IMG/VR virus record: IMGVR_UViG_3300042691_015370
Span: 1-64,000 of that record
Source: a virus
Strand: one strand, 5' to 3'
DNA length: 64,000 nt
Below, piece by piece: positions 1,477 to 28,803 of the stretch (positions are counted from its first letter, which is position 1; each line of letters begins with the position of its first letter). A program made the position numbers and the translations under genes. Under the pieces are notes generated by a model. It saw only the letters and a program-made list of their open reading frames with translations. It ran no database searches and had not been told where the DNA came from.

Positions 1477-3736
1477 GTATGATCTATACACTTAAGACAG
1501 ACAGCACCATCATCATCGAAGCCAAGCAGCTTGACTCAGACAACGCTGTCAACATCAGCGTTTGGCTTGACTACCATGGTGTGCCCAACACCGTGTACGT
1601 CAACAGTCCAGACCTAGGTGTGGGTGATGAGCGCTTGGTGCCGGGTATGTGGGTGGGTGTGCTGCCCTATGAGGGCTATGTCACGCTCACTCAGGAGGAT
1701 CTGGACACACACTTTGTCGCAGATGAACAGGAGGATGAGGATGACTGATCCGTATAGCATCTACTACAACACCTACTGGAATGCCCGCAGCGAGGGTTAT
1801 TCCGATAGTGCTGCACGGCGACTTGCCGATGCAGCGTACCGATTCGCAGGGAGGTTGCTGTAATGGCACGACAGATCACGTTTCCAGTTGAGTTCACCGT
1901 CACGCTGGATGACGACACGAGTGAGCGCAAAGTCAAGGACACATTCTTCCAGTTCGTGACTGAACTGATCGAAGTGGAGCCTGCGCCCGCACCCGGCACC
2001 ACACCCTATTGGGTGAGCCTTATCACACTGGACCACACCAAGATTGTGACCAAGGAGACTGAGTGACAGAGTACGCATTCCCTACCATCGAAGTTGAGAC
2101 TCCCCGATGCTTTCACTGTGGCAAGACTGGCACAGTGACGGTGGTGGCTGAGGCTTACGCTTCATGGAAGGCTAAGCGTGGTCCGATTCAGCAGTTCATG
2201 CCTGAGATGCATGAGGATCTGAGAGAGCAGTTGATTTCTGGCACGCACGCCAAGTGCTGGGACGAGATGTTTGGAGAGGGTGTTGACGTATGAGTTTCAT
2301 TGCAAACCCCAACCCGAACCCGTACAAGCGCATGAACTCATACGAACAAGAGCACCTTGACCCACATCATGGTTTTGCTGGTGTAGTTGTGAGATGTGAT
2401 GCACGGTGCCCACGAGAGCACTGGTGGTACATGCCAAAATGCACGTCAACAGATCCGAACAACCATCAGGGTGATACATGCCCTATCCACGAAAGGTAGG
2501 CACTATGTCCGCAGACAACTTCCTCGCACTTCGTTTGCACGAGCCGAGCGGCAAGTACGTCGTCACCCATGAATCAGCCAGTGCTGATGAGTTGAGTGAC
2601 TTGGACCGTGAGTATAACCGTATCACGGCGAACGGTGGCTCTTGGTACTTGTCAGGAGTGTTCGACACTTGGCTGGACGCATTCAGCTTCCTCAACAAGT
2701 GCTATGAGGATGAGCCGTACATTGAGTACGGCCCCTCCATCTGTGTAGAGCAGCCCAAGTGGGAGAACAGCAACATCCAGTTCCCACGCCTGATCGCAGA
2801 GATCGTAGCAACACAGGAGATCGACATGGAGGCACTGGCAGAGTCCATGGACCTGACTCTGGATGACGTGCATGAACTGTTTGAGCGTGCTCAGACAGAG
2901 TGGGAGCAGATCAAGGAGAAGGCATGATTGCCAAAGCATACTTCAGTCGTAGCGAGGTGTTCGCTGATGACATGCACCTCGACCCGGATGAGACACTCTC
3001 GGTGCCGGTTGATACGAGTCAGGGTAACTTCATCACCCTCACCTACGACAACGTGTATGACACGGTGACCGGAACAGTGGCCTACTACGACACCAACTAC
3101 AACTGCTGGGTCGATGGCTTGACTGGTGCTTCGTGGAGCGATGTCACCATCCACTTCAGTGAGGACGAGAATGCCGTTTCGTGAAGATTACAGCCCCGCA
3201 GGATGCGAGGAAGTGATCCGAGCAGTTATCTGCAACGAGCCAGATGACGCTAACTTTGGTGGCTGGGACATTCTTATCAGTGTCCCTAACGAACTTGGGT
3301 TTTCGATGTGGGTGTGTGTCGCAGAGACTGCATCCTTTCCTAAGATGCGGACTATCTGCTCAGCCCTAGAAAGTGTGCATCAAGCCCTGAAGGATACACG
3401 CTACAACCCGGTTATTCTGGGTAAGGAGGACGGTTGGTAATGAGCGTTCCAATGCCGAATGACAAGATCCTTGGTGGTACATGCATTGCGTCCACTTGTT
3501 ATCGTGAGGCTGATGCTGAGGTGCCGAACGACCACTACGTTGTGGTCGTGCTGATGCCAGAAGCCCCATTCTATAAGGTGTGTGTGGTAGAAGATCAGGA
3601 TGGTGTGCTCGTTCCAGAGTGGACAGAAACACACCGCAATATCGTTCCAGCCATTGTGAACGAGCCATCCACTTTCTCCGGTGGACATTTCAGGCCGGAA
3701 AAGAGCGGCTACGTTGACATGGGGGGCGACTACTGA
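1473..3736 (+). other. Run of small co-oriented hypothetical genes (1473-1748, 1863-2066, 2063-2293, 2290-2499, 2505-2927, 2924-3184, 3171-3440, 3440-3736)
   Basis: Overlapping stop/start codons and SD motifs; no family recognised. Confidence 0.7.
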
Positions 3737-5246: not shown

Positions 5247-5534
5247 ATGCGTGACTACCTTGAGCTTGGCCCTAGCCCCGCTGGTGAGAACTGTGTGCAG
5301 GTTGGTGAACCCAACTATGCTCCCCGTGCTCGACTTGAGTGTGAGCGTTATATGACACTCTTGGAGCGGACCTTTGGTAAGCCTCCTAGGGGTGCTTGCT
5401 TTGGCGTCAAAAGCTTCCCACATGACTTCGGTAGCTACTACGAGGTTGTCATCCACTTCGATGACGATTACGACGAAGCTGCGGACTTTGCCTACGAGGT
5501 GGAGCGTAATCTGCCTGAGACTTGGGAGGGCTGA
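5247..5534 (+). CDS. Conserved-type phage hypothetical protein
   Basis: AAGGAG RBS; HDFGSYYEV motif. Confidence 0.75.
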   Translation: MRDYLELGPSPAGENCVQVGEPNYAPRARLECERYMTLLERTFGKPPRGACFGVKSFPHDFGSYYEVVIHFDDDYDEAADFAYEVERNLPETWEG

Positions 5535-12016: not shown

Positions 12017-12583
12017 ATGAAGAAGATTGTTATTGGACTCCTTGTTGCAGTGAGCCTTATTGCTGTTGGTTGTAACGAGCAAAAGGATAACGCAACGGAG
12101 CGTGATACCAAGACTGCAAGTGAGCAGTTGCGGCAGTTCCAAGAGGCACAGCCTGTCCCAATCTTTAACAGTTCACAGCTTCGGCAGAACTTGATTGAGA
12201 TTCAGACTGCACAGGCTAACGCCACTGCAACTACGACCTTCTTCTTTAATCAGGGCGTCACTGACCCTATCCATTCCTGCCCCAGCATTGGCTTCCCAAT
12301 CCCCGGCAGCTACCAATTGACCAACCCTGAGGGTGTGCAGCGTATTGGTGGCGGTAGTAGCTGGGAGCGCTTTGCCTTGCCGCAGCTTGAGGCTACTGGC
12401 GTTTACACCGGCGATACCACCGGCACCACCGTGATTTGTGTTGACGAGGACGGTAAGGGTTATGCCCACTGGTGGGAAGGCTTTGTATCCACCGTTGCTG
12501 GTCCTGCTGAGTGGAATACCGAAACCAAGCAGGTTGAGATGACTGGTGCTCCTAGCGCAGAGTTCAGCACTGGCGAGAAGTAA
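12017..12583 (+). CDS. Lipoprotein, partner of the upstream membrane protein
   Basis: MKK, hydrophobic stretch and AVGC lipobox; G.PIP...QLTNP motif. Confidence 0.8.
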   Translation: MKKIVIGLLVAVSLIAVGCNEQKDNATERDTKTASEQLRQFQEAQPVPIFNSSQLRQNLIEIQTAQANATATTTFFFNQGVTDPIHSCPSIGFPIPGSYQLTNPEGVQRIGGGSSWERFALPQLEATGVYTGDTTGTTVICVDEDGKGYAHWWEGFVSTVAGPAEWNTETKQVEMTGAPSAEFSTGEK

Positions 12584-12669
12584 TGTCATACTGGATGGAA
12601 GTCGCTTTATGGACTCTTGTCTTTCTGACATTCTTTACGTTCGGCTTTCTAGCTGGGCGTAGACGCTGA

Positions 12670-13033
12670 TTGAATCTCCACTGACCCGGTGGAGTGCGCC
12701 TTGACTGTTATTCTTGTGCGCGTTACTGATAAGTTAATTCCATCTCTGCCAAATACCGACCTAGAAGTCGGAGGGCGGTTATCCGCTAGTGGTGATGGTG
12801 ATACGAAACAGTAAGGTAGGGAAGTACAACCTGCTGGGTAAGTTCTCCCCATTGCATGAGGCGTGTCCCGCACCTTATGTATATGTGCCTAGCTCTTGGG
12901 AAGAGCGAATTGACAGGCAGGGGCGTAAGTACCTTTGGTCCCATAACGCACGGTACAGGTGACAAGCTCGTAAAGCTAACGAGAGCCAACGCATCCATGC
13001 ACTAGCTAGTCATATGGATGGTGGTTGGCACAT
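12670..13033 (+). ncRNA. Candidate large structured non-coding RNA
   Basis: No + strand ORF of 60 aa or more in an otherwise fully coding arm; about 10 helices foldable by hand; ends flush with tRNA-Tyr. Confidence 0.6.
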
Positions 13034-13115
13034 GGGGGTGTCGCATAGCGGCAATTGCAATTGGCTGTAAACCAATCGCCTTCGGGCTTCGTAGGTTCGA
13101 GTCCTACCACCCCCA
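13034..13115 (+). tRNA. tRNA-Tyr(GTA)
   Basis: GGGGGTG/CACCCCC, ATTGG-CTGTAAA-CCAAT, long V-arm GCC-TTCG-GGC, GTAGG-TTCGAGT-CCTAC. Confidence 0.95.
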
Positions 13116-13117
13116 CT

Positions 13118-13345
13118 ATGGAAACAATAGTAGAAGCAATTCCAGTAATATTCATCATTTGCGCTGTCATCTTTGGATTTCTAGTGGCAAGACATTTCAT
13201 TAAGGATGCCGGAACCCCTCTAGACACAGAGACTGCGGCCATGTCAGTGGCGGTGTTCTTTGTGAGTGGCTTTATGTGGTGGTTCTTTGTGCCGCTACTG
13301 GCACTAGGCTTTCTTGTGAAGTTGGTAGTGAACCGGGTTAGGTAA
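13118..13345 (+). CDS. Small membrane protein
   Basis: Two hydrophobic segments; ATG immediately after the tRNA. Confidence 0.6.
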   Translation: METIVEAIPVIFIICAVIFGFLVARHFIKDAGTPLDTETAAMSVAVFFVSGFMWWFFVPLLALGFLVKLVVNRVR

Positions 13346-28227: not shown

Positions 28228-28803
28228 ATGACAAACCCATATGATTTGCCCGGTAAGTGGTACGTACTGAACACCAAGGCAAACCACGAGAACAAGGTGA
28301 AGCAAGCCATTGAGACTCGTGCAAAGTCCATGATGGTTGATGATCGTATCTATGATATCCACATCCCGGTACATGACGTAACTGAGATCAAGAAGGGCAA
28401 GAAGCAGACCGTTGAGAAGAAGACTTTTCCGGGTTACTTGCTTGTCCGATGCGACCTAAACGATGAGTGCTACGGCGTACTGCGACATACTCCCGGCGTC
28501 ACAGGCTTCCTAGGTGGTAGCGATGTGCGTTCGGATCGTGTTGAGGATAAGGCTACTCCACTTACTCGACGTGAGGTAGAGCGCTTCGTGGTCTTCGACA
28601 AGGATGATGTAGACATTGCTGCCCCAGCAGTGATCGACTTTGAGCTTGACGAACTAGTGACCATCAACGAGGGTCCGTTCTCAGGCTTCAATGGTCAGGT
28701 GATTGACATCAATGCTGATCAGTTGACGCTCAAGGTGCTGGTCAATATCTTCGGTCGTGAGACTCCTGTTGAGATTGGATTTGGCAAGGTCACAAAGACA
28801 TGA
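28228..28803 (+). CDS. nusG: Transcription elongation factor NusG
   Basis: WYV....HE.KVK, FPGYLLV, RHTPGVTGFLG, KOW motif GPFSGFNG, KVLVNIFGRETPVE. Confidence 0.95.
   Translation: MTNPYDLPGKWYVLNTKANHENKVKQAIETRAKSMMVDDRIYDIHIPVHDVTEIKKGKKQTVEKKTFPGYLLVRCDLNDECYGVLRHTPGVTGFLGGSDVRSDRVEDKATPLTRREVERFVVFDKDDVDIAAPAVIDFELDELVTINEGPFSGFNGQVIDINADQLTLKVLVNIFGRETPVEIGFGKVTKT

Follow-up and report, generated by a model that had tools for sequence, protein, structure and literature searches.

Positions 12675-12843 (+ strand) of a 64,000-nt stretch of viral DNA, here called the window (positions 1-64,000 of a 144,887-bp IMG/VR virus record, 89% complete), carry a copy of what comparison with homologs indicates to be a conserved RNA motif, new and with an H-type pseudoknot. 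We propose to name it the phage tRNA-Lys/Tyr leader motif. It lies in a gap (12670-13033) that directly adjoins a tRNA-Tyr gene, and 19 distinct full copies were collected from metagenomic phages and aligned (alignment A5). The family is defined by a hairpin, P1, with loop G-N-CCC; a second helix, P2, closed by ACUGAUAA...AAACAGU; a third, P3; and a UGGG-N strand that pairs back to the P1 loop. The minimal form is ∼85 nt and the smallest copy (L047; L numbers denote loci) is 89 nt, while in the window copy a P1a hairpin and a P2 arm of 70 nt bring the length to 169 nt. The motif strand is that of the downstream gene.

A sequence-only reading had singled out the gap as one densely structured RNA of ∼360 nt. 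It was right that the gap is long, ORF-free (ORF, open reading frame) and abuts tRNA-Tyr: the longest ORF in any frame is 57 aa and the tRNA (ARAGORN, Rfam) begins at 13034. The internal ORFs of 41–57 aa are not conserved in homologs, and indels there are not multiples of three, giving no coding support. Two of the helices it had drawn, CTCCACTG/CGGTGGAG and GGTAGG/CCTGCT, are P1 and P3, and homologs support both; the pseudoknot, the motif's defining feature, had been overlooked. The elements of the gap, in order, are as follows.

12676-12694, + strand: P1 hairpin, 8 bp in the window, present in 19 of 19 copies
12684-12687, + strand: pseudoknot 5' strand ACCC in the P1 loop, pairing with GGGU at 12836-12839, with compensatory changes among copies
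12695-12724, + strand: linker with the optional P1a hairpin (GCGC...GCGC), from comparison of copies
12725-12733, + strand: ACUGAUAAG, the P2 5' strand (ACUG) and an internal-loop strand; ACUGAUAA is invariant in 19 of 19 copies
12734-12803, + strand: variable distal P2 arm, a three-way junction of 70 nt, near-identical only in L053
12804-12815, + strand: CGAAACAGUAAG, the loop strand GAAA, the P2 3' strand CAGU (12809-12812) and junction AAG; AAACAGU is invariant
12816-12834, + strand: P3 hairpin GUAGG/CCUGC with a 9-nt loop; the five outer pairs covary
12835-12839, + strand: pseudoknot 3' strand UGGGU; UGG is invariant and the next two bases vary with the P1 loop
12840-13028, + strand: lineage-specific insert between core and tRNA, unsupported (fold z −1.11; no similar inserts)
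13029-13033, + strand: CACAU, a short conserved pre-tRNA leader beside the tRNA, from comparison of copies
13034-13116, + strand: tRNA-Tyr, anticodon GTA, with a long variable arm (ARAGORN; Rfam tRNA model, 58.4 bits)

P1 has a conserved core, CCACU (12678-12682) with GGUGG (12688-12692), that includes an invariant U.G pair; its family form is CC(A/U)CU(G)...(C)GG(U/A)GG, of 5–6 bp. The place of P1a is taken by a hairpin of other sequence in L012 and L054 and is empty in L047, L013 and L073b, one of two copies in L073. Copies of the tRNA-Lys clade have a long three-tier hairpin in the linker, with a conserved UUUAC bulge. All four ACUG/CAGU pairs of P2 are 100% kept with zero variation, so the argument for P2 is one of conservation and position only. 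The sequence-only reading had extended this helix to TTACTG/CAGTAA; the ACTG/CAGT part is conserved and the remainder is not. We take the adjoining AUAA/GAAA internal loop to resemble the UAA/GAN motif. The segment from AUAA to AAACAGU measures 9–91 nt. In the two copies where it is shortest (9 and 11 nt) it has no fold; in the other 17 it forms a hairpin or a junction, with sequences that are unrelated. In the window this arm holds two further helices claimed earlier, CCATC/GATGG and CCGAC/GTCGG, which do recur, but only in the near-identical L053, a locus whose sample also yielded one of the gap's identical copies (the gap is 100% identical in three other assemblies). P3 is closed by an invariant G.U pair and otherwise varies freely in sequence. 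About 25 bases are invariant across the family, concentrated in the junctions and P2.

The paired regions were scored on A5 over 5 bp of P1, 4 bp of the pseudoknot, 4 bp of P2 and 5 bp of P3. Standard pairs fill 96.5% of cells, compared with 81.5% ± 1.4 in shuffles, and the covariation score is 0.387 compared with 0.110 ± 0.018 (0 of 500 shuffles as high). Sliding the partners by 1–3 columns brought the score to at most 0.084 and paired cells to at most 53%. Both sides change in 9 of 18 pairs: all five in P3, where up to five pair types occur per position, two in P1 and two in the pseudoknot. P1 pair 7-18 is split between A-U (10 sequences) and U-A (9), and P1 pair 5-20 turns from C-G to G-C in L173. 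Pseudoknot pair 12-269 is A-U in 11 copies, G.U in three (L057, L083, L088), G-C in two (L058, L076) and U-A in one (L173), and is broken in two (L073a; L061, by an extra loop base). Pseudoknot pair 13-268 is C-G in 18 copies and U-A in L088, whose P1 loop is CUUGUCCGG and whose 3' strand is UGGAU. RNAalifold run on A5 recovers P1, P2 and P3. Covariation in homologs had been named as a check on the earlier claim; P1, P3 and the pseudoknot pass it, and the 3' 190 nt of the gap gain no support from it.

Strand is indicated in two ways. The U.G pair of P1 is invariant (19 of 19) and several U.G pairs occur in P3; all would be C/A mismatches on the − strand, which argues that the RNA is made from the + strand. 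The predicted fold of 12670-13033 is also better than shuffles on the + strand (z −2.09; 3 of 100 shuffles as good) and not on the − strand (z −0.44; 29 of 100). The claim of a structured non-coding RNA on the + strand thus stands.

These observations bear on whether the gap acts through RNA at all. It might instead consist of decayed tRNAs, be a DNA site (promoter, recombination or homing target), or reflect recent horizontal transfer with a tRNA cassette. P2 and most of P1 are indeed invariant. Possible mobility of the cassette is suggested by what comes after the tRNA: HNH endonuclease genes in L048 and L053, and in L047 an ORF that shares their N-terminus. We nonetheless judge this explanation very improbable, given the compensatory changes in P1, P3 and the pseudoknot, the G.U pairs on one strand, and homologs that span very different base compositions and gene contexts. 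Inside 12670-13033, no tRNA signal was seen by ARAGORN or by the Rfam tRNA model at E ≤ 10, and a decayed tRNA array was rejected for that reason; three serial hairpins with a loop-to-tail knot are not the topology of a cloverleaf. The L047 contig contains a Nextera adapter, CTGTCTCTTATACACATCT, inside the HNH-like ORF, ∼90 nt into the ORF after the tRNA. The contig is therefore chimeric beyond that point; its motif and tRNA lie before it.

In the window, the conserved device ends well short of the tRNA. Fold energy by itself makes a weak case, its signal lying mostly within the 5' part: 12675-12843 has z −1.76 (9 of 200 shuffles as good) and 12844-13033 has z −1.11 (29 of 200), both on the + strand. 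A shuffle test, likewise proposed earlier, therefore favours the whole stretch but not its 3' part. On comparison of copies, we take 12840-13028 to be outside the device. Inserts occur at one point in the family, between GGGUA and CACAY plus tRNA and always 5' of CACAY, and are absent from 12 of 19 copies. They measure 190 nt in the window, ∼235 nt in L012, 160 nt in L053, 75 nt in L057, 90 nt in L061 and 125 nt in L073b. The window insert has no similarity to the other five, its homologs being 100% identical copies only; the inserts are mutually unrelated except that L061 and L073b, both of the tRNA-Lys clade, share 94% identity over 78 nt. L057 and L058 have the same leader, with the 75-nt insert in L057 only. 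Having neither comparative nor thermodynamic support, the 3' half reads as an optional expansion. Most of the helices in the earlier description fall with it: CCCC/GGGG, TGCATGAGG/CCTTATGTA, TGCCT/AGGCA, GCTCTT/AAGAGC, GTACC/GGTAC, CTCGT/ACGAG, GCCAAC/GTTGGC and CATCCAT/ATGGATG all lie in 12844-13033, as does a suggested TGGGA/TCCCA loop-loop contact, for which we found no fold or homolog support.

Two observations concern the inserts themselves. The shared 78-nt module (L061:2245-2322; L073 minus strand, 3639-3715; a shorter relative in L057) contains TTGACT-N18-TACGGG and a hairpin followed by CUAAGG. An internal promoter or a sub-module that is mobile are possible readings. A hexamer, (G/A)UAAG(U/G), is found at 12729, 12811, 12839 and 12926 in the window and at four to five sites in L012. 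Two of these sites are the conserved P2 junctions and the others lie in inserts, which suggests that inserts arose by partial duplication of core segments.

That 12670-13033 is a single large, ornate RNA like GOLLD or ROOL is accordingly a view we regard as largely refuted and scarcely probable. In its favour, the whole stretch folds somewhat better than shuffles and neighbours a tRNA, as GOLLD and ROOL often do; these RNAs are likewise phage- or prophage-associated and of unassigned function (PMC12286853). They are, however, 580–800 nt long, conserved over their full length and represented in Rfam (PMC12286853), whereas the present motif is an ∼85-nt core, the size of its minimal members, with non-conserved expansions. 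The 3' 190 nt fold like shuffles, are missing from most copies, and vary as an indel between near-identical phages. The earlier idea of a new RNA class does survive, as an Rfam-absent, tRNA-linked motif whose covarying unit is ∼85 nt.

Searches with Rfam 15, whose models include GOLLD, ROOL, tmRNA, RNase P RNA, group I and II introns, riboswitches and T-box, found only tRNAs in the whole 64-kb window at gathering score, and at E ≤ 10 over 12400-13300 no match overlapping 12670-13033. This bears out the earlier statement that tmRNA, RNase P and group I intron signatures are lacking. Five minimal copies searched at E ≤ 5 had no family matching the motif. With blastn, the window stretch and two minimal copies matched 50,697 phage records only in the tRNA part or in chance 20–25-mers, so at that sensitivity cultured phages in this collection appear to lack the motif.

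Homologs were sought by pattern scans, walks from neighbouring genes and a covariance model, R1, built from eight sequences. Against R1 the window copy scores 105.4 bits (E ∼2e-26) with every element present, a score that is not independent because this copy was among the eight. L012 was reached by walking from the gene for a 188-aa protein upstream of the gap (homolog 83% identical) and has the window's arrangement: an identical 18-nt hairpin, ∼365 nt otherwise diverged, and tRNA-Tyr. Islands common to the two (ACTGATAAGT, AAACAGTAAG and CACAT) served for pattern scans of viral, metagenome and genome contigs, which yielded L013/L049, L047, L048, L050/L052, L053 and L054. R1 used without a DNA pattern yielded L002, L057/L058, L061 and L088, the last a second copy in the phage of L013. 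R1 also sorted true copies from pattern matches (L072, two in L073, L076, L079, L083 and L173); the pattern that found L173 did not include P1. Several homologs (L002, L057/L058, L061, L088 and L173) were thus found by searches that did not specify their variable element. L079 is an N-masked partial copy, left out of A5, that also precedes tRNA-Lys(UUU). Pattern matches were accepted only if the covariance model, P1 and the pseudoknot agreed. Loose ACTGATAAG...AAACAGTAAG patterns in viral contigs gave mostly chance matches in AT-rich coding sequence (L016-L046 and most of L089-L194), which were rejected.

Four loci of IMG/VR sample 3300045988 stand apart: L107:6426-6518(−), L131:2033-2125(−), L136:8865-8957(−) and L146:1144-1231(−). 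They have a P2-P3-UGGGA core without P1, at 18–20 bits against R1, in the order ACUGAUAA-hairpin-AAACAGUAAG-hairpin-UGGGA. A tRNA-like 3' end (GGGTTCGAATCCC...ACCA) lies ∼250 nt downstream, without an ARAGORN call. The four loci may represent a larger RNA that contains a relative of the motif, either distant or permuted.

The motif stands directly 5' of a tRNA in 15 of 19 copies, and that tRNA is tRNA-Tyr(GUA), tRNA-Lys(UUU) or tRNA-Lys(CUU). What follows each copy is:

tRNA-Tyr(GUA), 7 of 19: the window, L012, L013, L047, L053, L054 and L048 (the last by eye, Tyr-like, with no ARAGORN call)
tRNA-Lys(UUU), 7 of 19: L002, L057, L058, L061, L072, L073b and L076
tRNA-Lys(CUU) with a long variable arm, 1 of 19: L050
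an ORF with a ribosome-binding site, 3 of 19: L073a, L083 and L173
only a tRNA-like stretch ∼230 nt downstream, 1 of 19: L088

The core ends 1–5 nt from tRNA position +1 in L047, L013, L048, L050, L054, L002, L058, L072 and L076; the remaining copies that precede a tRNA have an insert separating GGGUA from CACAY and the tRNA. The short pre-tRNA leader reads CACAU in the window and L012, CACAUAC in L057, CACAC in L058, L076 and L072, and ACAC in L054. In L073a the core ends ∼20 nt before the ribosome-binding site. The motif is always on the strand of the flanking genes and usually starts 6–20 nt after the stop of a co-directional ORF. The only clear promoter among the copies is in L053 (TTGACT-18-TGnTATAAT), ending 10 nt before P1, so that P1 would be a 5'-terminal hairpin; a promoter scan found no promoter-like site upstream of the motif in the window. 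A −10-like AAGTAAT lies upstream of several copies at varying distances and was not used as promoter evidence. One copy is present in the window's record; each of five other records scanned whole has at most two hits (two in G006), and a locus search found two copies in the L073 record.

Two further observations were made around the tRNAs. A tRNA with a class-II-type arm and anticodon CTT (Lys) occurs at L050:8776-8862 (= L052:11571-11657) and L054:3550-3633 (ARAGORN, Rfam). In L050 it comes directly after the leader; in L054, tRNA-Tyr precedes it by 77 nt. Such an arm is unusual for tRNA-Lys, and the gene could derive from tRNA-Tyr by a change of anticodon or encode a tRNA-Lys that evades nucleases. 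The sequence GTTAGGGTTTAA recurs just downstream of tRNA-Tyr or the motif at L012:5185-5200, L054 (∼3480-3495) and L088 (minus strand, ∼200 nt 3' of the motif). The three loci are otherwise diverged; in L012 two T-arm-like GGTTCGA(T/C)TCC sequences follow, without an ARAGORN call.

From this placement and by analogy with known RNAs, we tentatively favour, at somewhat less than even confidence, a role for the motif as a cis-acting processing and stability leader of the downstream unit, usually tRNA-Lys or tRNA-Tyr and sometimes a small ORF. The + strand transcript of that unit would have the motif as its 5' leader, folding co-transcriptionally, P1 first, then P2 and P3, with UGGGU pairing last into the P1 loop to give a compact knot. 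In cis, the knot would separate the downstream RNA from the upstream message and give the precursor a nuclease-resistant structured 5' end, much as viral xrRNA (exonuclease-resistant RNA) knots stop 5'-3' exonucleases; a cut by RNase P at tRNA +1 would then free the mature tRNA. The xrRNAs of dianthoviruses and flaviviruses also close a ring between a hairpin loop and a 3' single strand, 5' of a preserved RNA (10.1101/262683, PMC5760640), and those with a loop-to-3'-tail pseudoknot block bacterial RNase J1 in vitro as well (bioRxiv 10.1101/262683). Our motif has a loop-to-3'-strand pseudoknot of this kind, 4 bp long, in which two positions show compensatory changes. The xrRNAs are found in eukaryotic RNA viruses and have no sequence or detailed structural similarity to it; a ring threading round the 5' end, and nuclease resistance, would be conjectural for our motif.

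The benefit would be that tRNA-Lys and tRNA-Tyr, which phages supply against tRNA-cleaving host defences, are expressed reliably and at a high level. Such defences, namely PARIS, PrrC and retron-Eco7 PtuAB, are neutralised by phage tRNA-Lys or tRNA-Tyr (PMC11464382, PMC11555353): phage tRNA-Lys neutralises PARIS (PMC11464382), and a highly expressed phage tRNA-Tyr neutralises retron-Eco7 PtuAB, expression level having mattered (PMC11555353). The choice of Lys and Tyr in our family fits this form of counter-defence.

Several points weigh against a protective leader. A simple protective hairpin needs no invariant unpaired AUAA, GAAA or AAG, nor an invariant P2; these suggest catalysis or specific binding of a protein or ligand. 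RNase P would free the tRNA anyway, leaving a protected leader without obvious need. Only L053 has a clear promoter, and elsewhere the motif follows a co-directional ORF by 6–20 nt. The presence of RNase J in the host is an assumption. Finally, relatedness among the sequences and an alignment fitted to the model inflate the pair counts.

Catalysis would make the motif a new class of small self-cleaving ribozyme that frees the tRNA precursor or small mRNA from a polycistronic transcript. We consider this a serious rival, though on balance a doubtful one. Its size, pseudoknot, invariant bases, free peripheral stems and optional insertions all suit a ribozyme, and known ribozymes occur close by. 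Pistol ribozymes (RF02679) scored above gathering threshold on the motif's strand at five independent loci, 0.4–8 kb from the motif, and at one related locus without it.

L072:11377-11437, − strand: pistol, 46.6 bits, ∼430 nt upstream of the motif
L088:2726-2789, − strand: pistol, 53.7 bits, plus two sub-threshold copies, ∼1.1 kb upstream
L073:6387-6445, − strand: pistol, 38 bits, ∼1.9 kb upstream
L173:3586-3662, + strand: pistol, 43.7 bits, ∼2.4 kb downstream
L050:349-419, + strand: pistol, 61 bits, ∼8.2 kb upstream
L063:2580-2629, + strand: pistol, 50.1 bits, in a motif-less related phage, at the equivalent place 3' of the homolog of the 188-aa protein

In this phage lineage pistols occupy intergenic spots and are always on the gene strand, and ∼93 kb of unrelated phage loci held none. 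Self-cleaving RNAs thus punctuate the transcripts of this lineage, and the motif is found at sites of a similar kind. No pistol occurs in the 145-kb genome to which the window belongs, however, so the association is at the level of the lineage only. Just 3' of the pistol in L072 (oriented 3229-3350), a ∼120-nt stretch is conserved in the same place in L073 and may be another structured RNA; the ∼430 nt from pistol to leader motif in L072 contain no ORF of at least 40 aa.

The motif itself was rejected as a member of the three ribozyme groups it recalls. It is about as large as the pistol and likewise has a 5' hairpin loop that knots with a strand further downstream, a linker rich in A, and two more helices. 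In the pistol, though, the 3' pseudoknot strand lies between the P2 5' strand and P3, and P2 closes the fold; in the motif that strand comes after P3, P2 is a local hairpin, and the conserved bases differ. Membership of the pistol family requires a score of at least 34.5 bits and a G-U cleavage site in the P2/P3 internal loop; the motif gave no match, while its true pistol neighbours score 38–61 bits. The stretch CUGAUAA-helix-GAAA recalls CUGANGA-stem II-GAAA of the hammerhead, but it has an invariant A in place of the essential G8, its CUG is paired with CAG in P2, it lacks the stem I/III arrangement of the hammerhead's three-way junction, and it has no Rfam match.

Theta ribozymes, which belong to the hepatitis delta virus (HDV)-like class, adjoin phage tRNAs and have been proposed to trim their 3' trailers (PMC10879173); they are a precedent for a ribozyme here. 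They too are small pseudoknotted RNAs beside tRNA genes of uncultured tailed phages, presumably co-transcribed and proposed to act in tRNA precursor processing. Unlike the motif, they lie 3' of the tRNA, have a nested double-pseudoknot HDV fold (P1, P1.1, P2, P3, P4) and cleave at their own 5' end. The motif lies 5' of the tRNA, its knot from P1 loop to 3' tail encloses P2 and P3, and its catalysis is only conjectured. An HDV-like or theta identity was rejected on its 5' position and the lack of any Rfam HDV-family match; the P1 strands are only 3–4 nt apart, too close for a helix around P3/L3 of the kind seen in the HDV fold. Further against cleavage, no Rfam ribozyme model matches even at E ≤ 5–10, minimal copies included, RNase P already makes tRNA 5' ends, and no cleavage site can be named from the sequence. 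Were the motif a ribozyme after all, which we hold in equal doubt, it would be the first placed 5' of phage tRNA genes, cutting precursors from a long early transcript alongside pistols.

Specific binding could mean instead that the leader is a stable trans-acting RNA or part of a ribonucleoprotein (a protein sponge or anti-defence decoy), with the tRNA serving only as the RNase P signal that sets its 3' end. The stable RNAs of the T4 tRNA cluster and MALAT1-mascRNA are parallels. A compact knot with invariant unpaired bases suits protein binding, nine copies have their core within 1–5 nt of the RNase P site, and no scanned record has more than two copies, the window's having one. We think it unlikely all the same. 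Three copies precede an ORF with no terminator after the motif, leaving the RNA without a defined 3' end; non-conserved inserts of 75–235 nt would join the product; and no partner protein co-occurs with the motif.

One candidate partner was a phage NusG. The window's phage encodes NusG (28228-28803; Pfam NusG, 6.6e-25) together with RuvB, the DNA polymerase III alpha subunit, a primase-helicase and a ligase. NusG as a LoaP-like recruiter was rejected, since it is absent from the motif-bearing genomes G001 (95% complete) and G008 (92% complete). This also bears on whether the motif is a regulatory aptamer or an RNA-polymerase-modifying RNA (a riboswitch or a put-like antiterminator) that controls read-through, NusG being the only candidate phage factor. 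A conserved pseudoknotted core with a variable periphery does resemble riboswitch aptamers, and around the motif are long runs of co-directional genes with many hairpins and tRNAs. Yet there is no expression platform, the tRNA following 1–5 nt after the knot with no terminator/anti-terminator alternative, and no Rfam riboswitch matches. We rate such control improbable, and return to a cis-acting leader as the role we would provisionally assign.

The genes just upstream in the window give some indication of what moves together. A hydrophobic 28-aa ORF (12583-12669, + strand; from the ORF list), which we note as context only, has its stop 6 nt before the motif. Its homolog in L012 sits downstream of the tRNA (5310-5396), so the leader and tRNA move as a unit independently of this ORF. 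Overlapping it is the gene for the 188-aa protein (12017-12583), which has a lipoprotein-type signal, MKKIVIGLLVAVSLIAVGC, lacks a Pfam domain and has more than 260 homologs in phage-like contigs.

The literature searched contains no description of the motif. Its fold, its position 5' of the tRNA and its association with Lys and Tyr appear to be new, with theta ribozymes and the stable RNAs of the T4 tRNA cluster as precedents of kind. A knotted RNA welded to tRNA-Lys or tRNA-Tyr suggests that these phages have a dedicated expression or processing device not described before. The fold is compact (∼85 nt), with clear covariation, a defined pseudoknot and sites that tolerate insertions, and should be easy to test in vitro. 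It is a candidate for a new class of ribozyme or RNA stabiliser, and a potential part for RNA engineering.

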